Part shown: one piece after another, positions 16,641 to 46,181 of the stretch
Position numbering within the stretch: the stretch's first letter is position 1
How the letters are laid out: every line of letters starts with the position of its first letter
DNA from: Actinomycetota bacterium
Lineage (GTDB): Bacteria > Actinomycetota > UBA4738 > HRBIN12
NCBI GenBank assembly: GCA_040511595.1
Contig: JBEVGU010000038.1
Coordinates: 23,903-87,902, forward strand
Length of the DNA stretch: 64,000 bases
Direction: 5' to 3'
Program-made: the position numbers and the translations under genes
The notes under the pieces: model-generated
The model's database searches: none
Seen by the model: the letters and a program-made list of their open reading frames with translations, nothing else
Told to the model about the DNA's origin: nothing

Positions 16641-17390
16641 CTAGGCCGGCCCGTACCAGGCGGGCGCGCCGCCACCGGTGAGGAACTCCTTGCGCTTCTT
16701 CTCGGCGCGATCGAGCAACGGCAGGAAGATCAGGAACGCCACGATCGAGCCGCCCAGGAACATGTAGGAGTAGCGAGGCACGCTGCCGGAGTCGAAGTAG
16801 AGCGAGACCGTCCACAGGGGACCGCCGCCGGTGAAGTGCGACTGCACGACGGCGAGCTTCGTGCCGTCGTCCTCGTTCGCGAACCTGATCGAGTCGATCG
16901 CGAACTGGGTGCCCTGGATCGCGGTGGGGTCGGTCTCTGCGACCCCGAGCTCCTCGTTCGTCTTCTCCGCGAGGAACGTCGTCACGGCGCCGCTGGCGCT
17001 CTGCACGTCGGCCGACTGCTCGGTGTTGGCCGGGTCGGGCACGGCCCATGGGTCACCCGGCCAGCTCGAGTACGTCTCGAAGCGGTTCGACGTCTCGTCG
17101 ACCGCGGCCTCGACCGCGACCCATGCCGGCTCCGACCCGCGTGGCCCGAGGTTCGTGGGGGTCTCGATACCCTGGGACCAGAAGCCGAAGAGCCAGAGCG
17201 CGGAGAGCATGACCATCCAGCCCGAGAACGACACCGCGAGCACGAGGAAGCCGAGCCAGCGCCCGACGATCGCGATCAGCAGCACGTACACGCTGAAGAT
17301 GAACAGCGTGAAGCCCATGATCGTGACGCCGGCACCCTTCCACAGGGTGCCGCACTCGACCGCGAACCCGAGGCAGCTGTGCTGCTCCAT
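16641..17390 (-). CDS. membrane protein associated with the b6c operon, hypothetical
   Basis: Two N-terminal TM helices, an extracytoplasmic domain and a C-terminal TM helix. Its start abuts the cytochrome c stop. Confidence 0.6.
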   Translation of the reverse strand: MEQHSCLGFAVECGTLWKGAGVTIMGFTLFIFSVYVLLIAIVGRWLGFLVLAVSFSGWMVMLSALWLFGFWSQGIETPTNLGPRGSEPAWVAVEAAVDETSNRFETYSSWPGDPWAVPDPANTEQSADVQSASGAVTTFLAEKTNEELGVAETDPTAIQGTQFAIDSIRFANEDDGTKLAVVQSHFTGGGPLWTVSLYFDSGSVPRYSYMFLGGSIVAFLIFLPLLDRAEKKRKEFLTGGGAPAWYGPA

Positions 17391-18125
17391 CTACGGGTCC
17401 CTCGGGTTCAGGTCGGTCTCGGCGAGCGCCCGGGCCGAGGCCTCGGGGTTCAAGCACACGTTGTCTTCGAACGGCACGTTCTCGGAGCTCATCTTGACCA
17501 GGAAGACGACGAGGTCGTTGATCTGCTGGTCGTTGAGGGCGCCCTGGAACCTGATGCTCCACGACGGCATCACCGGCCGTTCCGGCGGGCGGCCTTCCTC
17601 GATGACCTGATAGATGTCGTCCTGGGAGAGGATCGCCGGGTGTGGCGGATCCCCGAAGGGGCCGGCGCAGATGTTGGTGAGGTTCGGGGGGTGTGCGATC
17701 GTGTCGCCCGCCTGGATCACGCCGCCGCGGAGCTCGGGTCCGTGGCATCGCACGCACCCGACGCCGAGCTGGTTCTCCTCGGAGAAGTTCTGGACCGCGA
17801 GCTCGCCGCGGTCGAAGGCGAGCACCTCGAGATCCTCCTCCTGCTTCAGGTTCGTCGAGGGCTCGGTGAGCCAGCTGTACGGCACGAAGACCACGAAGAA
17901 GGCGACCAGCACCACGCCCCAGCCCTGCAGCTTCTGCAGCAGCGGGGTCTCGAGCGCTGCGTCGGCCGGGCCTGGGCGCATGCCGCGCGGGATGTCGACC
18001 GGCCGCTCCTTCTGGCGGCTGCGGAAGTAGAGCGCGGCCGCGGCCGCGGCCACGAAGATCGCGCCCAGCACGAGCAGCACGACGCCCGCTGTCGTCGTGG
18101 CGGCGAGCACGTTCGGCGCGAGCAT
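17391..18125 (-). CDS. membrane-anchored monoheme cytochrome c
   Basis: Single CVRCH heme-binding motif with a downstream Met ligand region. N-terminal TM anchor. Confidence 0.8.
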   Translation of the reverse strand: MLAPNVLAATTTAGVVLLVLGAIFVAAAAAALYFRSRQKERPVDIPRGMRPGPADAALETPLLQKLQGWGVVLVAFFVVFVPYSWLTEPSTNLKQEEDLEVLAFDRGELAVQNFSEENQLGVGCVRCHGPELRGGVIQAGDTIAHPPNLTNICAGPFGDPPHPAILSQDDIYQVIEEGRPPERPVMPSWSIRFQGALNDQQINDLVVFLVKMSSENVPFEDNVCLNPEASARALAETDLNPRDP

Positions 18126-18154
18126 CTCCGTCGTTCGTTCCTCCCCTCGAAGCC

Positions 18155-18874
18155 TCAGCCGGTCGCGACGCAGAACGGGCCCTGCGGCGGCTGATCGATC
18201 GTGTCGGTGCCGCGGGGCGGACCGAGGATCACCTCGGACGTGTCGACGACCACGCTGCCGTCGGTGATCTCGAGCATGAACCGGTCCATGCCTCGGGGCG
18301 CTGGGCCGAGCCGATACTCGCCGGCGCCGTTGTACTTCGAGCCGTGGCACGGGCATTCGAACCATCGTGAGGCCTGACAGAACGGCACCCGGCAGCCGAG
18401 GTGCACGCAGCGCTGGTACAGAGGCATGATGCCCTCGGCGGTGACCCCCTCGGTCGCGTAATCGACGTCGCCGCTCGGCGATCCGTTGTAGTTCACGACG
18501 TAGAAGCGGCCGGTGCCGTTGTAGGCCACGCCGTTGTCGTTGATCTCGGCCTTGATGTCGTCGATGTTGCCCGCGTCGACGAGCGATCCGAAGCCGCCCT
18601 TGAGGTTGGGCCACAGGAACGCGACCGTGGCCCCCCCGAACTGGGCGCCGAACACGAGCAACGACGTGAGCAGCGACCGACGGAAGAAGTCGCGACGCGA
18701 GAGCGACTTGACAGGCTTGCCGGCCACCTCGATCTGGCCGTCGGCAGTCTCGCGCGCGGCGCGGTTCGCCCGCGCGAAGGACAGGCCGAACACGATCGCG
18801 AAGATGTCGAGCACGATGAACGCGAGGATGGCCGCGACGAGCGGCGTCGAGATGCCGAGCAGGCCGAGCGGCAT
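18155..18874 (-). CDS. qcrA: Rieske [2Fe-2S] iron-sulfur subunit of the cytochrome bc complex
   Basis: Twin-arginine motif (SRRDFFRRS). Rieske boxes CVHLGC and CPCHGS. Confidence 0.9.
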   Translation of the reverse strand: MPLGLLGISTPLVAAILAFIVLDIFAIVFGLSFARANRAARETADGQIEVAGKPVKSLSRRDFFRRSLLTSLLVFGAQFGGATVAFLWPNLKGGFGSLVDAGNIDDIKAEINDNGVAYNGTGRFYVVNYNGSPSGDVDYATEGVTAEGIMPLYQRCVHLGCRVPFCQASRWFECPCHGSKYNGAGEYRLGPAPRGMDRFMLEITDGSVVVDTSEVILGPPRGTDTIDQPPQGPFCVATG

Positions 18875-18879
18875 GGTGC

Positions 18880-19740
18880 TCACAGCTCGAAGAACACCCC
18901 CTGCGCCCACGGCCAGATCCAGTTGTAGCCGGGGCCGCGGAAGAACGAGCCGATGATCGTGAGCACGCCGCCGAACATGAACAGGATCGTGAACATCGTG
19001 ATCGCGATCTTGCGGTCGCCCGGCTTGATGCTCGGGTTGCGGTCGACGTAGGGCACCGCGGCGAGCCCGACCAGGATGAACGTCGGGATCGTGATGCCCG
19101 CGATCATCGGGTGGAAGTAGCGAAGCAGCTCCTGCAGACCGAGGAAGTACCACGGGGCCTTCGACGGGTTGGGCGTAAGGTTCGGGTTCGCGAGCTCACG
19201 CAGCGGCGCGTTGATGAACGCCGAGAAGAACGTCAACGCCGCGAGCAGGATGAACATCGCGACGAACTCCTCGATCAGCAGATGGGGCCAGACGTTGACG
19301 CGGTCGCCCTGTTCGCGTTCGACGCGTTGGATGCCCTCGGGCGGGACGAGCGCCAGCAGGCGATGCTTGTCGGCGGCTCCCTTCTTGGGCGTGGGCAGGT
19401 TGCCCGTGGGCAACGGGGCTTCGCGGGCCGGGGTGGTAGCCGGCGCCGCCGCCACCGCGACCGGGGCGCCGGCGGCTGCCGCTGCAGGCGCGCCCGCCGC
19501 GGCAGGCGCGCCTGCAGATGCGGCCGCGGCGGCGGGTTGGGCAGCGCCACCATTGCCACCGGCGGTGGGCGCGGCGGCCTCGTGCCTCGCCGCTTCCTCG
19601 GGGTTCGCGGCGCGGTAGGCGCGCACGGCCGCCGAGCGGGCGCGGCCCTCGGCCACGCGACGGTCGGTTCCCTTGGCCAGCTCTGCCTCGAGCGTGGAGT
19701 CGAAGACCGATTGGTCGAGCGGGGTGTCTTCCTTGGCCAC
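18880..19740 (-). CDS. cytochrome b C-terminal domain protein (b6f subunit-IV-like) with Ala/Pro-rich N-terminal extension
   Basis: GTG start after AGGAG. PEWY-like region APWYFLGLQELLRYF. About 110 aa of low-complexity A/P-rich sequence precede the membrane domain. Confidence 0.8.
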   Translation of the reverse strand: MAKEDTPLDQSVFDSTLEAELAKGTDRRVAEGRARSAAVRAYRAANPEEAARHEAAAPTAGGNGGAAQPAAAAASAGAPAAAGAPAAAAAGAPVAVAAAPATTPAREAPLPTGNLPTPKKGAADKHRLLALVPPEGIQRVEREQGDRVNVWPHLLIEEFVAMFILLAALTFFSAFINAPLRELANPNLTPNPSKAPWYFLGLQELLRYFHPMIAGITIPTFILVGLAAVPYVDRNPSIKPGDRKIAITMFTILFMFGGVLTIIGSFFRGPGYNWIWPWAQGVFFEL

Positions 19741-19751
19741 CGATGACTCCT

Positions 19752-20522
19752 TTACAGGGGACCCGAGATGCCGCCGTCCTTGCGGATGCGCCAGAAGTGC
19801 ACCGAGAGGAAGATCACCAACACGAACGGCAGCGCCAGCACGTGCAAGACGTACCAGCGCAGCAGGGTCTCGGGGCCGACCACGACGCCGCCCAGCAGGA
19901 GGAAGTTCGCCTGCTTCGCGATGAACGGCGAGTACCCCGCGAGCGACGTGCCCACGGTGACCGCCCAGATCGCGAGCTGGTCCCACGGCAGCAGATAGCC
20001 CGTGAACGACAGGCCGAGCGTGAGGAACAGCAGGATCACGCCGACGACCCAGTTGAACTCGCGCGGCGGCTTGTAGGCCCCGGTGTAGAACACCCGGGCC
20101 ATGTGCAGCGTCACGCTGAAGACCATGAGGTGGGCCCCCCACCGATGCAGGTTGCGCACGAGATCGCCGAAGAACACCGAAGTGCGGATGTTCTGCATGT
20201 CCGTGAACGCCTGCGCGCCCCCGATGTCGGCCGTCGGCCGGTAGAAGAACATCAGGAAGATGCCGGTGATCGTGAGCAGGATGAACAGGAAGAATGAGAG
20301 CCCGCCGAGGCAGAACGTGTAGGTCAGTTTCAGCCCGTGCCGCTTCACCTTCACCGGGTGCAGGTGGTACAGCACGTTGTTCATCGTCGCGAGCGCTCGG
20401 TCGCGCGAGGTGTCCTTGTACCCCTTGCGGAAGATGGAGCCCGGCCGAAAGATCGACTTCCAGACCTCGGTCTCGCGGATGCGATCACCCAGGTCGCTGG
20501 GTGAGGGCGGCTTCAGCTTCAC
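19752..20522 (-). CDS. qcrB: cytochrome b6-type (N-terminal half of cytochrome b) with heme-ci cysteine
   Basis: Heme His ligands in HRWGAHL and TLHMARV. The FCLGG cysteine matches the heme-ci Cys of Bacillus and b6f cytochrome b6. The C-terminus RIRKDGGISGPL matches Bacillus QcrB. Confidence 0.85.
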   Translation of the reverse strand: MKLKPPSPSDLGDRIRETEVWKSIFRPGSIFRKGYKDTSRDRALATMNNVLYHLHPVKVKRHGLKLTYTFCLGGLSFFLFILLTITGIFLMFFYRPTADIGGAQAFTDMQNIRTSVFFGDLVRNLHRWGAHLMVFSVTLHMARVFYTGAYKPPREFNWVVGVILLFLTLGLSFTGYLLPWDQLAIWAVTVGTSLAGYSPFIAKQANFLLLGGVVVGPETLLRWYVLHVLALPFVLVIFLSVHFWRIRKDGGISGPL

Positions 20523-20926
20523 CGCGTTCCCTCTTCGGCAGCCTGTGACATCGGGACTTGGGCCATCGTGCGCGAACCGGCTTTGGACCCCTCGGGCAGT
20601 CGCGCGTAGTAGAGCGTGTCGGTCGGGCACCGATCGACGCACACGGAACAGCGCGTGCACGCGTTGTCATCGACCACGAACACCGCCGTGGCCGTGTCCA
20701 CCTCGTCCCCGACGGCGTCCTCGGCGGAGTCGCGCACGATGCCCGTCGACATCATGTAGATGCAGTTCCAGGGACAGACGTCTTCGCACGCCCGGCAGAG
20801 GATGCAGTTGTCGGGGTCGAGCATCAGGTGCTTCGGGGACTTGACCCCTTGGGCGAGCCACGCGGGGTCGACCGCTTCCACGACGTAGTCCTCGTGGATG
20901 TCGACCTCGGTCTTGGTGAACGGCAT
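20519..20926 (-). CDS. 2x[4Fe-4S] dicluster ferredoxin
   Basis: Two CxxCxxCxxxCP motifs. Its stop overlaps the qcrB GTG start (GTGA). Confidence 0.85.
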   Translation of the reverse strand: MPFTKTEVDIHEDYVVEAVDPAWLAQGVKSPKHLMLDPDNCILCRACEDVCPWNCIYMMSTGIVRDSAEDAVGDEVDTATAVFVVDDNACTRCSVCVDRCPTDTLYYARLPEGSKAGSRTMAQVPMSQAAEEGTR

Positions 20927-20938
20927 GGGCTCCAGCTC

Positions 20939-21364
20939 CTAGCGGTACCCGCCCGTCGGTCGGCTCTCCGACGAGCCGCGCAGCTTGTGTCGCCAGTTCT
21001 GCATGATCGCGGCGGCCACGAGCACCGTGATGATAGGTCCGGTCGACAACCCCATCGCGATGGCGTCGCGAACCTGCAGCAGCAGCTCCTGGTACTGGGC
21101 CGGCTGGCCGCCGGGCAGCAACGTCGGGATCTCCTGCAGGGCAGCCTCGATGTCGGTCGGCCCCTGCCACCCGAGCTTCTGCTCGGAGACGTACAGCCAG
21201 AACGACGGCAGCACGGATGTGGTGATCAACAGGAAGAACACGATTCCCACCGAGAAGGCGACGGCAGTGGTCCACGTCCACTCGAACCCCTTGAGGAACG
21301 CCTCGACGCGCTCCTTGCGGCTCTGCGTGGACTTCATGGGCGTCGCCGTCTCGACCTGGCTCAT
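20939..21364 (-). CDS. membrane protein, hypothetical (first gene of the ferredoxin-b6c operon)
   Basis: Two to three TM helices. Start assigned at MSQVETATP. Confidence 0.5.
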   Translation of the reverse strand: MSQVETATPMKSTQSRKERVEAFLKGFEWTWTTAVAFSVGIVFFLLITTSVLPSFWLYVSEQKLGWQGPTDIEAALQEIPTLLPGGQPAQYQELLLQVRDAIAMGLSTGPIITVLVAAAIMQNWRHKLRGSSESRPTGGYR

Positions 21365-21435
21365 GCGCTCCCGAGTCTCCTGAGGCGGGGGGATTATAGA
21401 CATGTGTCCCGCGGGCCCGACGACCCGCGGGTGAC

Positions 21436-21453
21436 TCGTGAATCGCTTCACAA
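21436..21453. promoter_or_regulatory. candidate Rex operator (TCGTGAA-TCGC-TTCACAA) in the divergent promoter between the b6c and ccdA operons
   Basis: Matches 17 of 18 positions of the TTGTGAA-N4-TTCACAA Rex consensus. AT-rich palindrome in a GC-rich intergenic region. Confidence 0.5.
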
Positions 21454-25044: not shown

Positions 25045-26136
25045 GTGCGGAAGAAGGCGCTGTGGACCCTGGGCCTGGCGGTCCTGGGACTGCTGCTCGG
25101 CGCGTGCGCTCAGAACGCCGGACAGGACACGCTCGACCCCGTCGGCGACGTCGCGAAGCAACAGAAGGCCCTGTTCGTGCCCGTGTTCTGGGTCGCGACG
25201 GTCGTGTTCGTGATCGTGCAGGGCGGCATCATCTACATCGCCCTCCGCTTCCGCCACCGCAAGGGGCAGGAACGCATGCCCAGACAGACGCATGGGAATA
25301 CCAGGCTCGAGATCGGCTGGACGATCGTCCCGACGGTGGTGCTCGCCGTGGTGATGGTGCCCGCCATCTCGCTGCTGTGGGAGCTCGCTCGGCCCCCCGA
25401 GGCCGGCGCCCTGAACATCACGGTGCAGGGATTCCAGTGGTGGTGGGGGTTCAGCTACCCCGACGGGGACATGGCCACCGATTGGGACACCCCGATCACG
25501 ATCGCCGACACGATGATTGTGCCAACCGACCGCGATGTCTACCTCTCGCTCGAAGCGATGGGCGGCGCCGCGAAGGACGACGACGGGAGTCCCGACCACG
25601 AGGTGATCCACTCCTTCTGGGTGCCCCAGCTGTTCGGGAAGCAAGACGTGGTGCCCAACCGCACGAACCACATCCAGTTCAGTGTCGACGAGCCGGGTCT
25701 GTACACGGGTCAGTGCGCGGAGTTCTGCGGCCTGCAGCACGGACGCATGAAGCTCGAGGTCGTGGCCCTTGCGCCGGACGACTGGGACGCCTGGGTCGAG
25801 AACCAGCGGACCCTGCCGCCCAGTCCCACCGATCCGCTCGCCGAACGGGGTGAGGAGATCTTCCTGAACCCGCTATCCGACGGCCGCGGAAGCTGTACCG
25901 CGTGTCACACCGTGGGGGACAACCCGGGCGGGGCGGCGGCGCCCAACCTGTCGCACTTCGCCGACGAGCAGCACACGTGCTTCGCCGGGTGCAACTGGCC
26001 GGTCTCCGATCGTGAGGCGCTCGCCGCCTGGCTCGCCGACCCGAGCGCCGAGAAGCTCGGGGCGAAGATGCCTGACTACCAGCTCACCGACGAGGAGATC
26101 CAGGCCCTCGTCGCCTACCTGTACAGCCTGACGTGA
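25045..26136 (+). CDS. ctaC: cytochrome c oxidase subunit II with C-terminal fused cytochrome c (caa3-type)
   Basis: Lipobox LLGAC. CuA site (CAEFCGLQHGRM). C-terminal CTACH heme-c motif. Confidence 0.9.
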   Translation: MRKKALWTLGLAVLGLLLGACAQNAGQDTLDPVGDVAKQQKALFVPVFWVATVVFVIVQGGIIYIALRFRHRKGQERMPRQTHGNTRLEIGWTIVPTVVLAVVMVPAISLLWELARPPEAGALNITVQGFQWWWGFSYPDGDMATDWDTPITIADTMIVPTDRDVYLSLEAMGGAAKDDDGSPDHEVIHSFWVPQLFGKQDVVPNRTNHIQFSVDEPGLYTGQCAEFCGLQHGRMKLEVVALAPDDWDAWVENQRTLPPSPTDPLAERGEEIFLNPLSDGRGSCTACHTVGDNPGGAAAPNLSHFADEQHTCFAGCNWPVSDREALAAWLADPSAEKLGAKMPDYQLTDEEIQALVAYLYSLT

Positions 26137-26155
26137 CGGAGGCGATCACCGAACC

Positions 26156-28066
26156 ATGGCGAGCGTGAGCGTTCCCGCGAGCGGGCGAGGCCTGCTGCGC
26201 CGACCCGTGTCCGTCACGGGTTTCTGGAGCTGGTTCACCACCGTGGACCACAAGAAGATCGGCATCATGTACGGGGTCGTGGCCTTCGCGTTCTTCGTGA
26301 TCGGGGGTCTCGAAGCCCTGCTGATCCGGGCCCAGCTCGCGCGGCCCGACGGCACGCTGCTGAACGCCGACCAGTACAACCAGGTCTTCACGATGCACGG
26401 CCTCACGATGATCTTCCTGTTCGTCATGCCGATGTCCTCGGGGCTGTTCAACTACCTGATCCCCCTGATGATCGGCGCCCGCGACGTGGCGTTCCCTCGC
26501 CTGAACGCCTACAGCTTCTGGGCGTTCGCGATGGGCGGGCTCTTCCTCTACTCGAGCGTGTTCCTCGGCGGCGCGCCGAACGGCGGCTGGTTCGGCTACG
26601 CGCCCAACTCGACCACCGATCCCTCGATCGGCATGACGTTCTACGCGCTCGGTCTGATCATCACCGGCATCGCGTCGACCGCGGGCGCCATCAACCTGGC
26701 CGTCACGGTCATCAACATGCGCGCGCCCGGACTCACGCTCTTCCGCATGCCGCTGTTCGTGTGGATGGGGCTCGTCGTCCAGTTCCTGCTCGTGTTCTCG
26801 CTGCCGATCATCACGGTGGCGTTGTTCCAGCTGTTGTTCGACCGGCGGTTCGACACCGCGTTCTTCGACCCGACGCGCGGCGGCGATCCGATCCTGTGGC
26901 AGCACCTGTTCTGGCTCTTCGGCCATCCCGAGGTGTACATCCTGATCCTGCCGGCGTTCGGCATCATCAGCGAGGTGTTGCCGGTGTTCAGCCGCAAGCC
27001 GCTCTTCGGCTATCAGTTCGTGGTCTTCTCGGGCATCGCGATCGGGTTCATCGGGTTCGGCGTCTGGGCCCACCACATGTTCGCGGTGGGCCTCGGCCCG
27101 GTGGCCAACACGGCGTTCGGCATCTCGACGGCGATCATCGCGATCCCGACCGGGGTGAAGATCTTCAACTGGATGGGCACGATGTACGGAGGCGACATCC
27201 GGTTCGCCTCACCGATGCTGTTCGCGATCGGCGCGGTCTCGATGTTCGTGATCGGGGGCCTGTCGGGTGTAACGCATGCGATCGTGCCGAGCGACTACCA
27301 ACAGACCGATACGTACTACATCGTCGCGCACTTCCACTATGTGCTCTTCGGGGGCGCCGTCTTCGGCTTCTTCTCGGCCTTCCACTACTGGTGGCCGAAG
27401 GTGTTCGGCCGGCGGCTGGGCGAGGCGGTCGGCAAGGCGCAGTTCTGGGTGTTGCTGATCGGGTTCAACCTGGCGTTCGGGCCCATGCACATCCTCGGCA
27501 TGCAGGGCATGATCCGACGTGAGTACACCTATCCCGAGTCGCTCGGGCTCACCTTCTGGAACGAGATCTCGACCGTCGGCGCGTTCCTGATCGCGCTCTC
27601 GGTGCTGATGTTCCTCGTCAACGTGGTGCGCACCGGCCTGCGGCGGGGGGTCGAGGCGGTCGAGGACCCGTGGGACGCGCGCACGATGGAGTGGATGACC
27701 ACGAGCCCGCCGCCGCCCCACAACTTCGACGAGATCCCGACCGTGCATGCGCTCGACGAGTTCTGGCACCGCAAATACGTCGAGGACGAGCGCACCGGCC
27801 GGCTCGTGCCGGCCCAGGCAGGGGCGTCGGACCCCCACGACGTACGCGGCGTCGCCGGCGCCGCTCCCGAGGAGGCGTCCGGGCACGGGAGCGGGCACTC
27901 GATCCACCTCCCGAGCCCGTCGTATTGGCCCCTCGTGTCGAGCCTCGGGCTGCCGATCATGGCCTACGGGGTGCTCTACTCCTGGTGGCTGGTCGGCCTC
28001 GGGGCCCTGGTGGTCTTGACCGGCTTCTACGGATGGGCGCTCGAGCCCTCGGTCGCGGAGGAGTAG
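26156..28066 (+). CDS. ctaD: cytochrome c oxidase subunit I with ~80-aa C-terminal two-TM extension
   Basis: Canonical subunit-I sequence. The extra C-terminal hydrophobic hairpin resembles a fused small subunit. Confidence 0.9.
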   Translation: MASVSVPASGRGLLRRPVSVTGFWSWFTTVDHKKIGIMYGVVAFAFFVIGGLEALLIRAQLARPDGTLLNADQYNQVFTMHGLTMIFLFVMPMSSGLFNYLIPLMIGARDVAFPRLNAYSFWAFAMGGLFLYSSVFLGGAPNGGWFGYAPNSTTDPSIGMTFYALGLIITGIASTAGAINLAVTVINMRAPGLTLFRMPLFVWMGLVVQFLLVFSLPIITVALFQLLFDRRFDTAFFDPTRGGDPILWQHLFWLFGHPEVYILILPAFGIISEVLPVFSRKPLFGYQFVVFSGIAIGFIGFGVWAHHMFAVGLGPVANTAFGISTAIIAIPTGVKIFNWMGTMYGGDIRFASPMLFAIGAVSMFVIGGLSGVTHAIVPSDYQQTDTYYIVAHFHYVLFGGAVFGFFSAFHYWWPKVFGRRLGEAVGKAQFWVLLIGFNLAFGPMHILGMQGMIRREYTYPESLGLTFWNEISTVGAFLIALSVLMFLVNVVRTGLRRGVEAVEDPWDARTMEWMTTSPPPPHNFDEIPTVHALDEFWHRKYVEDERTGRLVPAQAGASDPHDVRGVAGAAPEEASGHGSGHSIHLPSPSYWPLVSSLGLPIMAYGVLYSWWLVGLGALVVLTGFYGWALEPSVAEE

Positions 28067-28068
28067 GC

Positions 28069-28713
28069 GTGTCGGACCTGGCCGTCACCCCCGGGCACGG
28101 ACCCGCCGACGCCGGCTCGCACGACGAGCACGCGACCGTGACGGGGCTGCCGAACACCAAGATCGCGATGTGGCTGTTCCTGGCCTCGGAATGCCTGCTC
28201 TTCGGAGCGTTGATCACCACCTACGTGCTGTACCGGGGGGCCAGCGAGATCGGGCCCTATCCCGCCGACATCTACGACATCCCGTACACGTCGGTCTCGT
28301 CGTTCGTGCTGCTGGCGTCGTCGCTCACGATGGTGCTGGCGCTCGCGGCGGCGCAGAAGCGCGACGGGACCCGAATGCGGCTGTGGCTGATCGCCACCGC
28401 GATGCTCGGCCTCACGTTCGTCGGAGGCCAGGTCTACGAGTTCACGACGTTTTACGACGAGGGCCTAGCGCTCGGGACGAACCTGTTCGGCACGACGTTC
28501 TACGTGCTCACCGGGTTCCACGGGGTGCACGTGACGGTGGGCATCCTCATGCTGCTCTCGCTCGTGGGCCTCTCGACCCTCGATCGCCTTCCGGACGACG
28601 CGGCGTTCCCCGTCGAGATGGTCGGTCTGTACTGGCACTTCGTCGACATCGTCTGGATCGTCATCTTCACCATCGTCTACCTGATCCCGTCCCCGTCCGG
28701 GCCGCCCGCATGA
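28069..28713 (+). CDS. ctaE: cytochrome c oxidase subunit III
   Basis: GTG start immediately after the ctaD stop. Subunit-III helices are present. Confidence 0.85.
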   Translation: MSDLAVTPGHGPADAGSHDEHATVTGLPNTKIAMWLFLASECLLFGALITTYVLYRGASEIGPYPADIYDIPYTSVSSFVLLASSLTMVLALAAAQKRDGTRMRLWLIATAMLGLTFVGGQVYEFTTFYDEGLALGTNLFGTTFYVLTGFHGVHVTVGILMLLSLVGLSTLDRLPDDAAFPVEMVGLYWHFVDIVWIVIFTIVYLIPSPSGPPA

Positions 28714-28720
28714 GGAGGCG

Positions 28721-29086
28721 GTGACGGTGTCGGATGTCGAGACCCCGTTCGAGCAGGAGCTCGGCGCGCGAGACATGCCCGACCCCGGTGAGGCAGGGGC
28801 GCCGCATCACGAGCACCCGAGCCCCAAGGAGTACATCCGCATCGGTGTGATCCTCGCGGTCCTCACCGGCCTCGAGGTCGCCACGTACTACGTCGACGTC
28901 GGAGGCGTGCTCGTGCCCACCCTGCTCGGCTTGGCGGCCGTGAAGTTCGCGCTCGTCGTGATGTGGTTCATGCACCTCAGGTTCGACAGTCCCACGTACG
29001 CGCGGTTCTTCCTGATGGGTCTCGCGGGCGCGGCCACCCTGTATCTGGTCGTGCTGATCTCCTTCGGCATCTTCTTGGTGGACTGA
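28721..29086 (+). CDS. cytochrome c oxidase subunit IV (prokaryotic CtaF/CoxIV family)
   Basis: Small protein with three TM helices and family similarity to CoxIV. Confidence 0.7.
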   Translation: MTVSDVETPFEQELGARDMPDPGEAGAPHHEHPSPKEYIRIGVILAVLTGLEVATYYVDVGGVLVPTLLGLAAVKFALVVMWFMHLRFDSPTYARFFLMGLAGAATLYLVVLISFGIFLVD

Positions 29087-29092
29087 GCGACG

Positions 29093-29923
29093 ATGCAGCT
29101 CCCCGGCTGGCACGCGCATCCCGACGTCTGGCTGTTGTTCGGGTCGATCGTCGCGGCCTACCTGATCGCGACGCGCCGGCACCTGGCGGCCACGGGGGAG
29201 GCGACCCCGCGACGGAAGACCACGCTGTTCATCGCGGGCATCGGCGTGCTGTGGCTCGGCGCGGACTATCCCGTGCACGACCTCGCCGAGGGCTACCTGT
29301 ACCTCATGCACATGACGCAGCACCTGGTGTTCACGCTGGTGGCGGCACCGCTGCTGATCGCGGGCATGCCGGTATGGATGCTGCGGGCCCTGCTCGCCCC
29401 GGCCGCCGCGAGGCGCCTGTTCCGGTTCTTTACGCGTCCGGTGATCGCGTTGATCCTCTTCAACGGCGTGCTGCTGTTCACCCACTGGCCGCAGGTGGTC
29501 GAGGCATCGGTCGGTTCGGAGATGGTCCACTTCGCCCTGCACGTGCTGATCGTCGCCTCGGCGCTCGTGATGTGGTGGCCCGTGATGTCGCCGTTGCCCG
29601 AGCTGCCCTCGCTGTCGCCCCCCGGGCAGATGATCTACCTGTTCCTGCAATCCCTCGCGCCCACGATCCCGGCGTCGTTCCTGACGTTCGGCCACTCGCC
29701 GCTGTACCCGGTATACGCGACCTTCCCCCGCATCTGGGGCATCTCGGCGCTGACCGACCAGCTGATCGCGGGCCTCATCATGAAGCTCGCCGGCGGCCTG
29801 GTGCTCTGGGTCGTCATCGCGGTGATCTTCTTCCGCTGGTTCGCGCAGGAGCAGCGAGACGGACTCGATGCCTCGGCCTACCAGGACGTGCAGCGAGAGA
29901 TCGGCGCGGAGCTGGGCCGATGA
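29093..29923 (+). CDS. ctaG: caa3-type cytochrome oxidase assembly factor CtaG (Caa3_CtaG family)
   Basis: Polytopic membrane protein similar to Bacillus CtaG. Confidence 0.7.
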   Translation: MQLPGWHAHPDVWLLFGSIVAAYLIATRRHLAATGEATPRRKTTLFIAGIGVLWLGADYPVHDLAEGYLYLMHMTQHLVFTLVAAPLLIAGMPVWMLRALLAPAAARRLFRFFTRPVIALILFNGVLLFTHWPQVVEASVGSEMVHFALHVLIVASALVMWWPVMSPLPELPSLSPPGQMIYLFLQSLAPTIPASFLTFGHSPLYPVYATFPRIWGISALTDQLIAGLIMKLAGGLVLWVVIAVIFFRWFAQEQRDGLDASAYQDVQREIGAELGR

Positions 29924-29959: not shown

Positions 29960-31264
29960 ATGCGTGAGGGCAAGAATCGGCAGAGCCTGCTGCTGCCGAT
30001 CCTGATCCCCCTGGCGGTGCTCGCCGTGATCGGGCTGGTGCTGGTTGGATTCTCCCGCGTGCTGCTCGCCGTCTCGCACACCGCGGCGACCGTCGTGGCC
30101 CTCGTGGCCGCCGCCGCGGTCGTGGCGGTTGGAGGGTACGTCGCATCGAGGCGACGCGTGAGCGGCGCCACGCTCTTCTCGATGGTGGCGGCGGTGACGG
30201 GCATCGCGATGCTCGCCGGTGGCCTGGCCGTCGTGGCCGCGCCGTTGGAGGAGGAGGGCGGGGGCGAGCCGGCGGAGGGGCCCGTGGTGACGCTCGCGGC
30301 TCCCGAGGGCGCCGCGGCCGACGGCTTCTCGACCGACGAGCTGTCCGCGCCCTCGGACGAGCCCTTCACGCTCGAGTTCGACAACGAGGATCCGTCGGTG
30401 GCCCACAACGTGGTGCTCTTCGACGGCCCGGACGCCGACGCACCGGCGCTCTTCACCGGCGGGCTGGTCACGGGGCCGAGCACCGCCAACTACTCGGTCG
30501 AGGCGGTGCCCGAGGGGAAGTACTTCTTCCACTGCGAGGTGCACCCGACGACCATGACGGGCACGATGACGGCCGCGCCGGGCGGCGGTGGCGGTGGCGG
30601 CGGCGGTGGCGGCGTCACGGTGGTCGCTGCCGACCTCGCCTTCGACACCGATACGATCGAGCTGGCGCCCGACGTCGAGAACACGATCACGTTCGACAAT
30701 CAGGACGCGGGCACGCCGCACAACATCGCGATCTACACCGATGACTCGCTCTCCGAGTCGCTGTTCGTGGGCGATCTCGTGACCGGTCCCGACACCATCG
30801 AGTACACGATCGCCCCCATCCCCCCCGGTGAGTACTACTTCCACTGCGACGTGCACCCCACCATGAGCGGGACGGTCGTCGTGGCCGCCGATGGCGGTGG
30901 CGGAGGGGGTGGTAGCGGCGGTGGCGGCGGCGAACCGTCGGATGAGCCGCCCGCCGACGGGGGTGGAGGCGGTGCTGGCACCGCGACGGCCTCGATCGGG
31001 GCCGAGGGCACGGCGTTCGACACATCCACCCTCAGCTGGCCCGCCGACTCCGACGTGACGCTCTCGTTCGACAATCGCGATCCCGTCGACGTGGCCGGGC
31101 CGCACAACGTGGCGGTCTACGACGGCGAAGCGGCGCTGTTCACCGGCGAGCTGGTCGAGGGGCCGGCCACCGTCGACTACGTGGTCCCGCCCATGCCGGC
31201 GGGGAGCTACGAGTTCCGATGCGACGTGCATCCGACGATGGCCGGGACGGTCGAGGTCACCTGA
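29960..31264 (+). CDS. membrane-anchored protein with three tandem type-1-copper cupredoxin domains joined by poly-Gly linkers
   Basis: Three N-terminal TM helices. The motif HN...(43-44 aa)...C-x2-H-x3-M occurs three times (AHNVV/HCEVHPTTM; PHNIA/HCDVHPTM; PHNVA/RCDVHPTM). Confidence 0.8.
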   Translation: MREGKNRQSLLLPILIPLAVLAVIGLVLVGFSRVLLAVSHTAATVVALVAAAAVVAVGGYVASRRRVSGATLFSMVAAVTGIAMLAGGLAVVAAPLEEEGGGEPAEGPVVTLAAPEGAAADGFSTDELSAPSDEPFTLEFDNEDPSVAHNVVLFDGPDADAPALFTGGLVTGPSTANYSVEAVPEGKYFFHCEVHPTTMTGTMTAAPGGGGGGGGGGGVTVVAADLAFDTDTIELAPDVENTITFDNQDAGTPHNIAIYTDDSLSESLFVGDLVTGPDTIEYTIAPIPPGEYYFHCDVHPTMSGTVVVAADGGGGGGGSGGGGGEPSDEPPADGGGGGAGTATASIGAEGTAFDTSTLSWPADSDVTLSFDNRDPVDVAGPHNVAVYDGEAALFTGELVEGPATVDYVVPPMPAGSYEFRCDVHPTMAGTVEVT

Positions 31265-31272
31265 CGACGTCC

Positions 31273-31872
31273 GTGGACGAGCCCACAGCCCGCCAGGAAG
31301 ACCGGGTCGGCAGGCGCGAGGGCCGCCGCACGTGGGGGATCGTCGCGTCGATCGCGTCGATCGTCGTCGTCGTCGGGATCCTCGCCTATGCCCTTCGCCC
31401 GACGACCGATCCGCGGGTGGAAGGAGGCGTCGCGGAGCTGGACGATCCGTTGCCGCGCCTGCAGGGGGAGGGGGTCGCCGGCGCCGCCGTCGACACCGAT
31501 GCGATGGAGTGGTCGGCGCTGGTGGTGAACGTCTGGGCGACCTGGTGCGAGCCCTGCCGTCGCGAGCAGCCCGCGTTGCGGCAGGTGCGATCCGACTTCG
31601 AGGCTCGCGACGTCGAGTTCCTCGGCGTCGACTATCGCGACGACCGGGCGGCGGCGATGCGGTGGATCGAGGACTTCGACGTGTCGTATCCGAGCCTGCA
31701 CGACCCGGACGGGCGGACCGCCGCGCTGCTGGGCTTCCCGTTCCTGCCCGACACGTACGTCGTCGACGCCTCCGGCACGATGCGCTACGCGATCTACGGC
31801 GAGACGAACGCTGAGGAGCTCTCGGGGCTGATCGAGGAGGTGCTGGCGGAGCAGGACGCCGCCGAGGCCTAG
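31273..31872 (+). CDS. thiol-disulfide oxidoreductase ResA/TlpA-like
   Basis: TM anchor plus WATWCEPC thioredoxin motif. The start codon is uncertain (GTG at 31273 or upstream). Confidence 0.75.
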   Translation: MDEPTARQEDRVGRREGRRTWGIVASIASIVVVVGILAYALRPTTDPRVEGGVAELDDPLPRLQGEGVAGAAVDTDAMEWSALVVNVWATWCEPCRREQPALRQVRSDFEARDVEFLGVDYRDDRAAAMRWIEDFDVSYPSLHDPDGRTAALLGFPFLPDTYVVDASGTMRYAIYGETNAEELSGLIEEVLAEQDAAEA

Positions 31873-33692
31873 ACGACGGCGTCGAGCGCGACCGCGCCGA
31901 ACAGGGCCGCGAGGTAGACGATGGAGTACGTGAACAGCCGCCACGACCGGTTCGCGTCGGCGTGGCGCCACAGCGCCAGCGCCCGGTAGACGAACAGCCC
32001 GCCGAGCGTGACCGCCGTGATGGTGTAGATCGGCCCGAGGCCGGCGGCCGGGACGAGGAGCAGCGTCGTGCCGAACAGCGCGAGTGAGTACACGAAGATC
32101 TGTCGCCGCGTCTCGTCGTCGCCCTTGACCACGGGCAGCATCGGCACGCCTGCCGCCGCGTAGTCGCCGCTGAACCGGAGCGAGAGCGCCCAGAAGTGCG
32201 GCGGCGTCCAGACGAAAACGATCGCGAACAGGATCCAGGCTGGCAGGGCGAGCGAACCGGTCACCGCGGCCCATCCGATCAGCGCCGGCGCGGCGCCGGC
32301 CGCTCCGCCGATCACGATGTTCTGCGTAGTCGAGCGCTTCAGCCACATCGTGTAGACGACCACGTAGAAGGCGATCGCCGCGAGCGAGAGGGTTGCCGCC
32401 AGAACGTTCACGGTCATCGCCAGGAACAAGAAGGAGAACGCACCGAGCCAGAACCCGAAGGCGAGCGCGCGTTCGGGCGTGACCTGGTCGGCGGGGAGCG
32501 GGCGGCCACGGGTGCGGCGCATCACCTCGTCGATGTCGCGGTCGAGGTACATGTTGATCGCGTTCGCCCCGCCCGCGGCGAGCGAGCCGCCGACCAGGGT
32601 CGCGAGCACGAGCCAGGGCGACGGCACGGCGCCCTCGGCGAGCATCATCGCGGGAACGGTCGTGATGAGCAGCAGCACGATGATGCGTGGCTTCGTGAGC
32701 CGGTAGTAGGCAGTGATCGTGTCGGACAGCGGCGTGGGGGCGGCGATCTCCGCCGCTCGTTCCCGGGGTTCCGCGAGAGCGTCGTCACCGCCGAGACTCG
32801 GCTCGCGCCGGGCGACCACGGCGAGGGCGACGACGGTGGCCCAGATGACGGCCGACGCGGCCACGTGCAGCGCTCGGGGCCAGGTCGAGAGCTCCGTGGC
32901 CACGTTGATGCCGCCGATCGCGACTTGCGCCACGAACAGCCCGCCGGCCAACGTCGAGAGGTGGACGAGCCTGGTCGAGCGCACGGGCATCGTTCGCGCG
33001 CGAACGACGAGCCAGAGCACCAGCGCGGCCACCGCGATCGCGAGCACGCGGTGGGCGAACATCTCGGCCGCTCCCTGTGGGCCGAACGACGGGATGAGCC
33101 GCCCGCCCATCAACGGCCAGTCCCGGAAGGCGAGCCCCGCCCCCTCGGCGCGCACGTACGTCCCGACGAGCAGCAGGCCGAACGTCGCGACGGCCGTGAG
33201 CATCGCGAGCCTCGCGTAGGCCCGGTCGCCGGCGCGCCGGTCCCCCTCGAACGCCAGCGCGGTGGCGGCGACCAGCACGCCGAGCACGATCATCGCGAGT
33301 CCGAAATGCAGGGTGACCACGGCGGGGTCGAGGGCGCTGTTCACGACCGCGCCGCCGAGCGCTCCCTGTACTCCGAACAACGGCACCAGCGCCACGGCGA
33401 GCCAGACGGCCGAGCGCGGCGTGGCGCTCGGGTGCCCACGTCGGGCGCGCACCAGCTCCACGACCCCGGCCACGGCCAGCATCACCGCGAGCAGCCCCGA
33501 GACGACGCCGAGCGCTCGGTGCGTGTACTCGATCAGCGTGTGGTACTCCCACCTCGGCACCCAGCTGCCGAAGCACCTCGGCCAGTCCGGGCACCCGTCG
33601 CCCGACCCGGTGGCGCGCACCAGTCCGCCCCATGCGACCAGCACCACGGTCGAGACCGTGGTGGCGACGGCCAGTCTCTGGAAGCGGGTCAT
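31869..33692 (-). CDS. ctaAB: fused heme A synthase (CtaA/COX15) and protoheme IX farnesyltransferase (CtaB/heme O synthase)
   Basis: The N-terminal half has the CtaA motifs GCPDWPRC and EYTHR. The C-terminal half has the UbiA motifs YYRLTKPRI and NMYLDRDID. Confidence 0.85.
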   Translation of the reverse strand: MTRFQRLAVATTVSTVVLVAWGGLVRATGSGDGCPDWPRCFGSWVPRWEYHTLIEYTHRALGVVSGLLAVMLAVAGVVELVRARRGHPSATPRSAVWLAVALVPLFGVQGALGGAVVNSALDPAVVTLHFGLAMIVLGVLVAATALAFEGDRRAGDRAYARLAMLTAVATFGLLLVGTYVRAEGAGLAFRDWPLMGGRLIPSFGPQGAAEMFAHRVLAIAVAALVLWLVVRARTMPVRSTRLVHLSTLAGGLFVAQVAIGGINVATELSTWPRALHVAASAVIWATVVALAVVARREPSLGGDDALAEPRERAAEIAAPTPLSDTITAYYRLTKPRIIVLLLITTVPAMMLAEGAVPSPWLVLATLVGGSLAAGGANAINMYLDRDIDEVMRRTRGRPLPADQVTPERALAFGFWLGAFSFLFLAMTVNVLAATLSLAAIAFYVVVYTMWLKRSTTQNIVIGGAAGAAPALIGWAAVTGSLALPAWILFAIVFVWTPPHFWALSLRFSGDYAAAGVPMLPVVKGDDETRRQIFVYSLALFGTTLLLVPAAGLGPIYTITAVTLGGLFVYRALALWRHADANRSWRLFTYSIVYLAALFGAVALDAVV

Positions 33693-33796
33693 CGTGGGTT
33701 CCTCACCGTGCCTCGGGGGTTGGCTCACCGCGACGGCCACGCGGCGCCCACATGATAGTGCGGGGGTCGCCCGGCGAGCTGCGAGATACTCCGCAC

Positions 33797-36593: not shown

Positions 36594-37049
36594 GTGTTGA
36601 TCGACTACCTGCCGATCGTCGCGATGGCCGGGCTGGCGGTCGCGTTCGGGGTGGCATCGCTGGTGGTCTCCCGCGCGTTCCGTCCCAACCGGCCCTATCC
36701 CGTGAAGCTGTCGGCCTACGAGTCCGGCAACGACCCCGTGCGGCTGCCGAAGGGCGAGAAGTTCAGCGTCAAGTTCTACGTCGTCGCGATGCTGTTCATC
36801 ATCTTCGACATCGAGGCCATCTTCCTCTTCCCGTGGGCGGTGCACTTCCGTCAGCTCGGGTTGTTCGGCCTGGTCGAGATGGGCATCTTCATCGCGCTCG
36901 TGTTCGTGGCCTATGTCTACGTCTGGCGCTCAGGGGGGTTCGACTGGGTCGAGGCCGCCGAGACGCCGCTCGAGCCCGACACGGAGACGGCGGCCGGGGG
37001 CGACGGGTCTGGTGCGGCGCGCGAAGCGGAGGTGGCCGGTGCCCGTTGA
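36594..37049 (+). CDS. nuoA: NADH-quinone oxidoreductase subunit A
   Basis: NuoA family similarity. GTG start. Carries a C-terminal acidic extension. Confidence 0.9.
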
Positions 37050-37557
37050 GCGGCTCGAGGGAGCGCGCCTCGGCAAGACGCCCGAGGAGGTCGAGGAAGA
37101 GGTGCGGCGCGGCGTGCTGCTGACCACGCTCGACCGGGCCGTGGGGTGGGCCAGGAAGCAGTCGATGTGGCCGGCCACGTTCGGGCTCGCGTGCTGCGCG
37201 ATCGAGATGATGTCCGCCGGCGCGGGCAAGTACGACCTCTCACGGTGGGGCATGGAGCTGTTCCGGGCGTCGCCCCGTCAGGCCGACCTGATGATCGTGG
37301 CCGGTCGTGTCAGCCAGAAGATGGCTCCCGTGCTGCGGCGCGTCTACGACCAGATGCCCGAGCCCCGATGGGTCATATCCATGGGCGTGTGTGCGAGCGC
37401 CGGAGGCATGTTCACGAACTACGCGATCGTGCAGGGCGTCGACACGATCGTGCCGGTCGACATCTACGTCCCCGGGTGCCCGCCCAAGCCCGAGATGCTG
37501 TTGCACGGCATCCTCAAGCTGCACGAGAAGGTCCGGACCACGGAGCCGTTCAAGTGA
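37039..37557 (+). CDS. nuoB: NADH-quinone oxidoreductase subunit B
   Basis: CCAIE and PGCPP N2-cluster ligands. GTG start after GGAGG. Confidence 0.9.
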
Positions 37558-38051
37558 AGCCCGACGACGTCGCCGCTCGCGTTCGAACTCGTTGCCCCGA
37601 CACCGTGGTGGCCCGCGACGAGGTCACGACCGTTGTCGGCCGTGACGACCTGCTCGAGACCCTCCGGTGGCTCCGCGACGACCCGAAGCTCTCCCTCTCG
37701 TTCTGCTCGAGCGTGACGGCCACCGACTGGCCCGGTTCCGATCCGCGTCTGTGGGTCGCCTACGAGCTGCGCGCGGTCGACTTCGCGCAGCGGCTGCGCG
37801 TGAAGGTCGGGTTGGCCGAGGGCGATCCGCACGTGCCGACGATCACCACGCTCTACCCGACCGCGAACTGGCACGAGCGGGAGACGCACGACTTCTACGG
37901 CATCGTCTTCGACGGCCATCCCAACCCGCGTCCCCTCATGCTGCCCGAGGGGTGGGAAGGCTTCCCGCTGCTCAAGACGGAGGAGCTCGGCGGCGTGAAC
38001 ACCCGGTTCCACGGCGCGTTCATCCCGCCGGTCGACACGCGGACCACCTGA
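37554..38051 (+). CDS. nuoC: NADH-quinone oxidoreductase subunit C
   Basis: [12 protein letters not shown] motif. GTGA overlap with nuoB. Confidence 0.9.
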
Positions 38052-38060
38052 GGCTAGCCG

Positions 38061-41346: not shown

Positions 41347-41390
41347 TGGAGCGGGGGTACGGGGGGCTCGAGAGCGAGCCACGAGGAACG

Positions 41391-44986: not shown

Positions 44987-45522
44987 CCGAGAGGGACGAG
45001 CCGCACGGTGCCCGGGAGCAGCCGGCCGACGAGCCCCAGCAGGGCGACCAGGGAGCCTGGGACGCGGCCGTGGCGATCGGCAAGGGTATGGCCACGGTCT
45101 TCAAGCAGACCTTCCGCCCCGACAACACCGAGCGCTACCCCCAGGAGATCGCGCCGAACCCCCCGCGAGCGCACACCGGTCGTCACCGACTCAACAAGCA
45201 CGATGACGGCCTCGAGAAGTGCATCGGGTGCGAGCTGTGCGCCTTCGCCTGTCCCGCCGACGCGATCTGGGTCGAGGGGGCGGACAACGATCCCGAGCAC
45301 CCCACGAGTCCGGGAGAGCGCTACGCGAAGGACTACCAGATCAACTACCTCCGCTGCATCATGTGCGGGCTCTGCGTCGAAGCCTGCCCCACGCGAGCGC
45401 TGACCCTCACCGACTACTACGAGCTGGCGTTCACGAGTCGCGAAGAGGCGATCTGGACGAAGGAACAGCTGCTCGAGCCCCCTCCCCCCCTGGGCACAGA
45501 TCCCGCGGACCGGGAGGGCTAG
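44983..45522 (+). CDS. nuoI: NADH-quinone oxidoreductase subunit I
   Basis: Two CxxCxxCxxxCP motifs. Confidence 0.9.
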
Positions 45523-45527
45523 GCAGG

Positions 45528-46177
<650 letters not shown>

Positions 46178-46181
<4 letters not shown>

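Follow-up and report, generated by a model that had tools for sequence, protein, structure and literature searches.

A triple cupredoxin gene behind ctaG

We analyzed a 64-kb stretch of DNA from an Actinomycetota bacterium (contig JBEVGU010000038.1; the whole stretch is referred to as the window), in which the gene directly behind the caa3 oxidase genes and ctaG encodes a membrane protein with three predicted type-1 (T1) copper domains, i.e. a triple cupredoxin (the coordinates of all features are collected in Table 1). The start codon of this gene is immediately preceded by a Shine-Dalgarno-like stretch, GGAAGGGAG, and the GC content at its third codon positions (GC3) is 0.91, which is on par with that of the neighbouring genes. 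Since more than 120 full-length homologues align with the protein from residue 1 at a coverage of 100%, the annotated start is correct. Rfam and tRNA scans of the 64-kb window returned nothing, and the signals detected in a scan for promoters and terminators were at the level of shuffled sequence.

A preliminary description of the locus had proposed three N-terminal transmembrane (TM) helices followed by three domains of about 100 residues that are joined by long poly-Gly linkers, and this layout was borne out in all its parts. Three hydrophobic segments in the hydropathy profile correspond to three helices in an AlphaFold2 (AF2) model of the whole protein, which was built with an alignment of 98 sequences. 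In this model the helices are followed by three beta-sandwich domains (residues 109-206, 219-308 and 342-433, hereafter D1, D2 and D3) with values of the predicted local distance difference test (pLDDT) above 90. The linkers have pLDDT values below 50 at residues 95-101, 210-216 and 312-338, i.e. they are disordered. Poly-Gly runs of 11, 7, 5 and 5 residues are located at positions 208-218, 312-318, 320-324 and 334-338, and they are encoded by (GGC)n arrays at window positions 30581-30614 and 30892-30932. The positive-inside rule predicts a cytoplasmic location for the basic N-terminus and likewise for the SRRR loop (residues 63-66) that connects TM2 with TM3; the protein would therefore adopt an N-in/C-out topology with the copper domains on the extracytoplasmic side. 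A Pfam search with the anchor alone matched no family, and the NCBIfam model ABZJ_00895, which matched the anchor with an insignificant E-value of 0.05, was rejected.

Each of the three domains contains a full set of T1 copper ligands, and in every domain an Asn directly follows the first ligand His (HN). The loop Cys-x2-His-x3-Met, which had been attributed to all three domains, is confined to D1; D2 and D3 have the short, amicyanin-type loop Cys-x2-His-x2-Met instead. The Pfam family Cupredoxin_1 (PF13473) matched the whole protein in three stretches (97 bits, E-value 8e-28) and each domain separately, with 35 bits for D1, 42.1 bits for D2 and 31.8 bits for D3, all of which pass the cutoff of 27. 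Copper-bind (PF00127) was passed by the whole protein (46 bits, E-value 6e-12) and by D2 (28.4 bits), while D1 and D3 alone scored under its cutoff of 21.2. Among proteins of solved structure, D2 (E-value 2e-5) and D3 came closest to amicyanin in sequence, and D1 came closest to auracyanin A and plastocyanin. In the HMMER alignments the His of the HN motif and the residues of C-x2-H-x(2-3)-M fall on the ligand residues of amicyanin and plastocyanin, so that the predicted ligands are in register with known T1 ligands. A single-domain AF2 model of D2 (pLDDT 97) was compared with known folds by Foldseek, with matches to auracyanin (TM-score, TMq, of 0.82-0.85), AcoP (0.76) and amicyanin (about 0.7), and further matches to plastocyanin, pseudoazurin and rusticyanin; for auracyanin, amicyanin, plastocyanin and pseudoazurin the probability is 1.0 and the TMq values together range from 0.65 to 0.85. 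All of the best D2 fold matches are single-domain electron-transfer cupredoxins.

The three T1 sites cannot be attributed to chance, because the T1 motif is absent from every other high-GC3 open reading frame (ORF) in the window, because all of the three Cys residues in the protein are copper ligands, and because the 12 ligands are invariant across 98 homologues (12/12; 46-90% identity, mean column identity 52%). The protein contains nine His residues and no HxH motif. Judged from sequence and predicted fold, its three domains are genuine type-1 cupredoxins attached to a three-TM anchor, and the three predicted sites would be expected to hold copper. Membership in the named cupredoxin families was rejected for amicyanin (NCBIfam equivalog TIGR02657, 49.4 bits against a cutoff of 110.2), plastocyanin (TIGR02656, 34.2 against 87.85) and halocyanin (TIGR03102, 13.4 against 93.8), and the sulfocyanin family (PF06525, SoxE) gave no match in the protein at E-values up to 1. 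The protein is thus a cupredoxin that falls outside the named amicyanin, plastocyanin and halocyanin families. Since the curated family models failed, the likeness to sulfocyanin and halocyanin that had been drawn earlier holds as an analogy and not as membership.

Homologues, domain number and gene order

A protein database search yielded 1078 cluster representatives with E-values up to 0.001. The best 120 of these 1078 all have cupredoxin Pfam domains and are 44-89% identical to the query, with lengths mostly between 413 and 454 residues (about a dozen are shorter). In the database the homologues are named merely 'cupredoxin domain-containing protein' or 'plastocyanin', and those among the best 120 with an NCBI source name all come from uncultured Actinomycetota. 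Three T1 motifs were present in 115 of these 120 proteins; the exceptions are for the most part shorter and probably truncated. The anchor matches the copper domains in conservation, with mean column values of 0.78, 0.70 and 0.63 for TM1, TM2 and TM3 and 0.65-0.72 for the domains, and it includes an invariant S32-R33 pair within an FSR(V/I)LL motif in the 98-sequence alignment. The linkers are characterized family-wide by their composition and variable length: the first consists of 27% Gly, 23% Glu and 13% Pro (10-18 residues), the second of 63% Gly (6-19 residues) and the third of 46% Gly (21-54 residues).

A scan for related loci with one genome per species returned 69 loci (numbers starting with L), nearly all from uncultured Actinomycetota, the nearest of which (L001) is 89% identical. 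The number of T1 domains in the cupredoxin encoded behind ctaG ranges from one to three in these loci. Loci of the window's clade, along with a few outside it, encode three domains (L001-L008, L010, L028); most loci encode two (L009, L011-L025, L042), and distant lineages encode one (L050, L052, L053, L058). Profile classification and a rough neighbour-joining tree showed that D1 is a distinct type, common to the two- and three-domain proteins, which forms a clade separate from D2 and D3; that the two-domain proteins consist of D1 and D2; and that D3 of the window's lineage forms a clade of its own. These relationships suggest that the D1 type is old and membrane-proximal, that the two-domain form is probably ancestral, and that D3 was added later. 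D3 was possibly gained more than once, because the D3 domains of L010 and L028 group with their own D2. Thus, the term 'triplicated' that had been used for the protein fits its three domains and does not extend to the orthologues at the same position, which have two domains or one. The triplication is also not recent, since the pairwise identity among D1, D2 and D3 is only 39-49%. Separate from the proteins encoded behind ctaG, we observed a paralogous family of ORFs of about 630-730 codons (their N-termini are provisional), which have two C-terminal T1 domains and no adjoining oxidase genes.

The placement of the gene agreed with the preliminary description: the genes for a CoxII with a C-terminal cytochrome c domain, CoxI, CoxIII, CoxIV and CtaG precede it, and genes for a ResA-like protein and a CtaA-CtaB fusion follow, the resA-like gene overlapping or abutting its 3' end. 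Upstream in the same island lie the cytochrome c maturation genes ccdA, resB and ccsB, as well as a divergent operon for a b6c-type complex III. This operon encodes a 2x[4Fe-4S] ferredoxin, cytochrome b6, subunit IV, a Rieske protein, a monohaem cytochrome c and two membrane proteins without a Pfam family; the cytochrome c (17391-18125, minus strand) is membrane-anchored and has a CVRCH motif. The island of b6c, cytochrome c maturation, caa3 oxidase, resA and ctaAB genes is conserved in about 30 loci of uncultured Actinomycetota, and across these loci the cupredoxin gene is always located right after ctaG. No small cytochrome c is encoded in the 64-kb window, where CXXCH turned up only in CoxII and in the cytochrome c of complex III.

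Several further observations concern the neighbouring genes. The two membrane proteins without a Pfam family flank the b6c operon (16641-17390 and 20939-21451, both on the minus strand). The synteny of the latter is kept in most related loci, and the former was seen in one locus and lies beyond the fetched flank in nearly all others. The ferredoxin gene (20519-20926, minus strand) is located just upstream of that for cytochrome b6, and its counterpart in Limnocylindria encodes a 611-residue protein with Fer4 and Pyr_redox_2 domains. Subunit IV (18880-20142, minus strand) has an apparent long Ala/Pro-rich N-terminal extension, in which the sequence VAEGRA resembles the N-terminus of second single-domain cupredoxins in L052, L053 and L058, a resemblance that is not statistically significant. 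CoxI has 636 residues, and its C-terminal tail (residues 578-630) matches the actinobacterial family Cyt_c_ox_IV (PF12270) despite the presence of a separate COX4_pro gene. An ORF at 28170-28724 (plus strand) was rejected as coxIII, since it is an artefact read in the wrong frame, and its translation is rich in Arg. Its tblastn matches in related loci are explained by the conserved DNA of the true coxIII frame. In the CtaA-CtaB fusion, haem A synthase spans residues 22-304 and haem O synthase (CtaB/UbiA) residues 357-604, and the fusion is kept in related loci; fusions of this type are known from other phyla (PMC8239418). A gene for a Rex-like redox-sensing regulator with Put_DNA-bind_N and CoA_binding domains adjoins the b6c operon (15786-16478, plus strand), and a nuo-type cluster for NADH dehydrogenase (complex I) lies downstream (36594-51400, plus strand), followed by a further run of large ORFs on the same strand (53600-61232, plus strand). 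Because the Rex-like gene and the nuo cluster join the b6c and cox genes, the window can be viewed as a large respiratory gene island.

Table 1. Features of the triple cupredoxin gene, its neighbours in the window and the gene fusions in related loci. Positions are those of the window unless a locus number is given; residues (res) refer to the cupredoxin protein.
Feature	Position	Strand	Evidence and remarks
Cupredoxin gene	29960..31264 (stop codon included)	+	ATG start; 434-aa membrane-anchored triple type-1 cupredoxin
Three-helix membrane anchor	29990..30238	+	TM1 res 11-35, TM2 res 40-62, TM3 res 69-93; hydropathy and AF2
Linker 0, acidic, Gly/Pro-rich	30239..30283	+	res 94-108, anchor to D1; pLDDT <50 at 95-101
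Cupredoxin domain D1	30284..30577	+	res 109-206; ligands H149 (HN with N150), C192, H195, M199; Cys-x2-His-x3-Met
Linker 1	30578..30613	+	res 207-218; 11-residue poly-Gly, (GGC)n array; disordered in the model
Cupredoxin domain D2	30614..30883	+	res 219-308; ligands H254 (HN with N255), C296, H299, M302; Cys-x2-His-x2-Met
Linker 2	30884..30982	+	res 309-341, 33 aa, Gly/Pro/Ser-rich, three poly-Gly runs; pLDDT 37-41
Cupredoxin domain D3	30983..31261	+	res 342-434; ligands H382 (HN with N383), C421, H424, M427; Cys-x2-His-x2-Met
Upstream same-strand gene run, operon-like	25045..29923	+	Pfam; gaps of 2-36 nt
CoxII with C-terminal cytochrome c	25045-26136	+	Pfam
CoxI	26156-28066	+	Pfam
CoxIII	28069-28713	+	Pfam COX3, E-value 1e-19
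CoxIV	28721-29086	+	Pfam, Bacillus-type COX4_pro
Caa3_CtaG	29093-29923	+	Pfam; directly 5' of the cupredoxin gene
ResA/TlpA-like thiol-disulfide oxidoreductase (WCEPC)	31219..31872	+	Pfam AhpC-TSA, Redoxin, Thioredoxin; position conserved
CtaA-CtaB fusion	31869-33740	-	One 623-aa protein
Complex III operon (b6c-type, split cytochrome b)	16641..21451	-	Divergent; Pfam, sequences
Fusion A, cytochrome c-cupredoxin	L056:9215-10327; L070:8001-9104		L070 with independent gene calls and Pfam labels
Fusion B, CoxII-cupredoxin	L065:9056-10273; L071:8001-9071
Fusion C, subunit IV-like module-anchor-cupredoxin	L072:2375-3418; L066:~9000-10600		Proteins P0456-P0509
Paralogous ORF family with two T1 domains	L026, L029, L030, L034, L035, L038-L046, L067

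Gene fusions in relatives

Homologous T1 domains were found in three kinds of fusion proteins. Fusion A, from Limnocylindria (Chloroflexota), consists of a TM segment, a monohaem cytochrome c, a poly-Gly linker and a T1 cupredoxin domain. Its gene is the last one of a fer-b6-SUIV-Rieske operon, at the place where the cytochrome c subunit of complex III is encoded. Both the cytochrome c and the Cupredoxin_1 domain were present in all 120 of its best homologues (120/120), each of which has a single CXXCH motif and a single T1 motif, the latter with the x3 loop that is specific to D1 (120/120). In agreement with this loop type, the cupredoxin domains of all 120 scored best against the D1 profile (105 bits versus 66 and 78 bits). 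The cytochrome c part resembles the complex III cytochrome c of the window weakly, with 27% identity around the haem motif and a pairwise E-value of 0.002.

Fusion B, also from Limnocylindria, is a CoxII protein (TM segment and CuA motif CxExCxxxHxxM) to which a C-terminal T1 cupredoxin is joined by an Ala/Ser/Gly linker. The cupredoxin occupies the site where caa3 enzymes bear their cytochrome c, and the gene for CoxI comes next. The architecture was found in 120 of the 120 best homologues (CuA motif in 120/120, T1 motif in 114/120), and on these sequence features it would amount to a 'cupredoxin-aa3' type of oxidase. The domains of fusion B scored slightly best against the D3 profile, by a small margin (91.7 bits versus 85.4 and 81.3 bits).

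Fusion C, from distant Actinomycetota, has an N-terminal module of about 135 residues with about four TM helices, which is followed by the three-TM anchor and a cupredoxin. The module resembles actinobacterial Cyt_c_ox_IV (PF12270), which matched 5 of 17 members (best E-value 4e-7), and in L072 the gene is located between coxIII and a caa3-type coxII. A search with the anchor only (residues 1-108) yielded 219 representatives. Among the best 150 of these, 71 have one to three T1 motifs, the remaining 79 are mostly short or seemingly truncated or frameshifted, and 17 carry the N-terminal extension of about 135 residues. A CXXCH motif, looked for as the mark of a direct cytochrome c swap, was found in none of the best 150 (0/150), so that wherever the three-TM anchor in this set carries a redox domain, this domain is a cupredoxin. 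We did not find the protein family or the CoxII-cupredoxin and cytochrome c-cupredoxin fusions described in the literature, subscription journals being outside the search.

Proposed function and comparison with known systems

We consider it rather probable that the window protein is an extracytoplasmic, tethered copper electron carrier of the caa3 oxidase, which would fill the role of a small cytochrome c between complex III and this enzyme. An oxidase-associated carrier is indicated because homologous T1 domains occur in fusions at the points where electrons leave complex III and enter complex IV, as well as in a fusion with a membrane subunit of the oxidase. The shuttle between the b6c complex and the oxidase that had been postulated before is supported by synteny and by these three independent fusions; however, judging from the conserved anchor and the subunit IV-like fusion, the protein is more likely bound to the oxidase as a subunit than shuttling freely. 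In the proposed mechanism, the three-helix anchor would hold the protein in the membrane, probably against the oxidase, with the three copper domains hanging outside on flexible Gly-rich tethers. Electrons would then pass from menaquinol via the Rieske/b6 complex and the membrane-bound monohaem cytochrome c to the T1 domains, and from there to the cytochrome c domain and CuA of CoxII, haem a and the a3-CuB site. The direction of this transfer, its partners and the attachment to the oxidase are deduced from sequence features and gene order, and they should be read as predictions. The Gly linkers of 10-50 residues could let the domains swing between partners, and the presence of multiple domains could either raise the local concentration of the carrier or serve as a relay. 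Tethering would make sense in a monoderm, whose cells would lose a soluble carrier to their surroundings.

More speculatively, the domains might divide the labour, in that the membrane-proximal D1 would be reduced by the complex III cytochrome c, whereupon D2 and D3, at the distal end, would hand the electrons on to the oxidase. D1 is assigned to the acceptor end because the D1 type associates with the complex III cytochrome c in fusion A. We further advance, as a tentative view that is less likely than the carrier function itself, that two soil phyla (uncultured Actinomycetota and the Limnocylindria within the Chloroflexota) build their complex III-complex IV interface from homologous T1 modules and not from a diffusible cytochrome c. 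The Actinomycetota form would then be an integral caa3 subunit, a copper wire with specialized ends, in which D1 would dock to complex III and D2 and D3 to the cytochrome c/CuA side of CoxII, and in which one to three domains would tune reach or capacity.

Several points weigh against the proposed carrier function and have to be set beside it. All relatives are known from metagenome-assembled genomes (MAGs), and a small cytochrome c carrier may be encoded elsewhere in the genome, outside the 64-kb window. Both complexes bear cytochrome c domains of their own, which could exchange electrons directly in a supercomplex, with the cupredoxin in an auxiliary role. The fusions sit in another phylum (Chloroflexota) or in distant Actinomycetota, and they reveal associations of homologous domains and not the function of the window protein. 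The idea of specialized ends rests mainly on D1, since the preference of the CoxII-fused domains for D3 is small. Finally, the gene is located amid the biogenesis genes ctaG, resA and ctaAB, which is also compatible with a role in assembly.

Of the alternatives, the one that deserves most attention, although we regard it as rather doubtful, is that the cupredoxin is associated with the oxidase without linking complexes III and IV. It might stabilize or tune the enzyme as an AcoP-like protein, or form an entry point for other extracytoplasmic donors such as Fe(II) and amine or other dehydrogenases. The position in the cox operon and the subunit IV-like fusion tie the protein to the oxidase alone, and AcoP, the membrane-anchored cupredoxin of the Acidithiobacillus ferrooxidans rus/cox operon, is a structural match with the TMq of 0.76 mentioned above. 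The best sequence match, amicyanin, is a partner of a dehydrogenase, but this link is weakened by a score of 49 bits where the equivalog cutoff is 110. The D1-type domains fused to the complex III cytochrome c in 120/120 relatives instead point to complex III as a partner, the b6c operon is a conserved neighbour, and neither dehydrogenase nor iron-oxidation genes turned up in the ORFs scanned within the window.

It is improbable that the protein acts as a copper chaperone or store which supplies CuA and CuB during oxidase assembly, together with CtaG and the thioredoxin-like protein. Such a role would suit a gene that lies between ctaG and resA/ctaAB in a cluster where no Sco or PCuAC gene was seen, and the PCuAC fold is itself cupredoxin-like. 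However, the CEPC motif of the neighbouring thioredoxin-like gene is that of the ResA type involved in cytochrome c maturation and not of Sco. Complex III contains no copper site that needs assembly, and a T1 domain that is permanently joined to mature CoxII or, more tellingly, to the cytochrome c subunit of complex III would suit a redox role better than one in copper delivery. The ligands also form the buried His-Cys-His-Met set of a redox T1 site and not the Cu(I) site of PCuAC, which has the motif H(M)x10Mx21HxM without Cys (PMC9145763). Consistent with this difference, no match to the PCuAC family was obtained at E-values up to 1.

We give equally little credence to the possibility that the protein carries electrons from complex III to other terminal enzymes, such as NirK or N2O reductase, its proximity to the cox genes being incidental. 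The cupredoxins pseudoazurin and azurin do serve such enzymes, and the fold matches of the whole model include a NirK with a fused cupredoxin; yet the position behind ctaG is held across about 30 genomes, the fusions involve CoxII and a subunit IV-like module, and no denitrification genes were found among the window ORFs scanned. A three-domain multicopper oxidase of the laccase or NirK type, which is what the top Foldseek matches of the whole model would suggest, is effectively refuted: these matches have a TM-score of about 0.2 and a root-mean-square deviation above 20 A, the Cu-oxidase Pfam matches are insignificant, the domains are split by disordered linkers and not packed together, and the lack of HxH motifs among only nine His and three Cys residues, the latter all T1 ligands, leaves no trinuclear or type-2 ligands, so that the matches reflect a shared fold only.

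Blue-copper proteins stand in for cytochrome c in cyanobacteria, haloarchaea, Sulfolobales, Chloroflexus and acidophilic iron oxidizers. To our knowledge, no blue-copper carrier of the present sort has been described in Actinomycetota, of which the textbook respiratory chain is a bcc-aa3 supercomplex with a fused dihaem cytochrome. If the proposed carrier function is correct, a tethered multi-copper carrier that operates together with a b6c-type complex and a caa3 oxidase would represent a different solution for a monoderm organism. The fusions across phyla would then predict the partners, namely the complex III cytochrome c for D1 and CoxII for the distal domains, and the natural series of one, two and three domains would provide a way to probe the purpose of tandem redox domains on flexible tethers. 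Respiration in these organisms would also be more copper-dependent, which bears on how the metabolism of soil MAGs is read. The family is large, as reflected by the 1078 cluster representatives, and it comes from MAGs of uncultured bacteria.

The closest known systems share some of these features. Auracyanin of Chloroflexus and Roseiflexus is a single domain on a simple tether, and we know of no report that places it within a cox operon. Like the window protein, it is a membrane-tethered T1 cupredoxin of a menaquinone-using organism, and it is the best structural match of D2 and the best sequence match of D1 in the Protein Data Bank. The window protein differs in sequence (about 20% identity) and in having three domains on a conserved three-TM anchor. 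In addition, Roseiflexus auracyanin is described as the periplasmic protein to which alternative complex III (ACIII) hands its electrons in a photosynthetic chain (PMC10873879), and on that account auracyanin pairs with ACIII whereas the window protein adjoins a Rieske/b6 complex. Amicyanin of Paracoccus is the closest solved relative by sequence and has the HN...YxxHC-x2-H-x2-M loop seen in D2 and D3. It is a soluble, single-domain partner of methylamine dehydrogenase, and the ORFs scanned in the window contained no gene for this enzyme.

Halocyanin of haloarchaea is a membrane-anchored T1 protein that is regarded as taking over from cytochrome c the delivery of single electrons to terminal oxidases. 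A gene fusion of halocyanin with the oxidase subunit CbaD is known, and this fusion parallels the cupredoxin fusions in the relatives studied here. Halocyanin differs in being archaeal (the title of a 1994 article by Mattar et al. reportedly calls it archaeal and lipid-anchored) and in not being a three-domain chain on a three-TM anchor. AcoP (or Cup) of the A. ferrooxidans rus operon is likewise a membrane-anchored cupredoxin that is encoded with aa3 oxidase genes, and studies have addressed how it interacts with a dihaem cytochrome c as well as its partnership with cytochrome c oxidase. It differs by its green copper site, its other ligand loop, its single domain, its origin in an acidophilic iron oxidizer and the position of its gene upstream of coxB, and, although AcoP was a structural match, no match at the level of sequence was found. 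In the monoderm Bacillus subtilis, the cytochromes c550 and c551 are tethered one-electron carriers between a b6c-type complex and a caa3 oxidase. They would be the functional equivalents of the tethered copper protein proposed here, while differing in having haem and not copper, one redox centre and an unrelated fold. The window protein is thus set apart from auracyanin, halocyanin, sulfocyanin, AcoP/Cup and the Bacillus cytochromes c by its three T1 domains in tandem, its three-TM anchor, the place of its gene behind ctaG and its pairing with a b6c complex.

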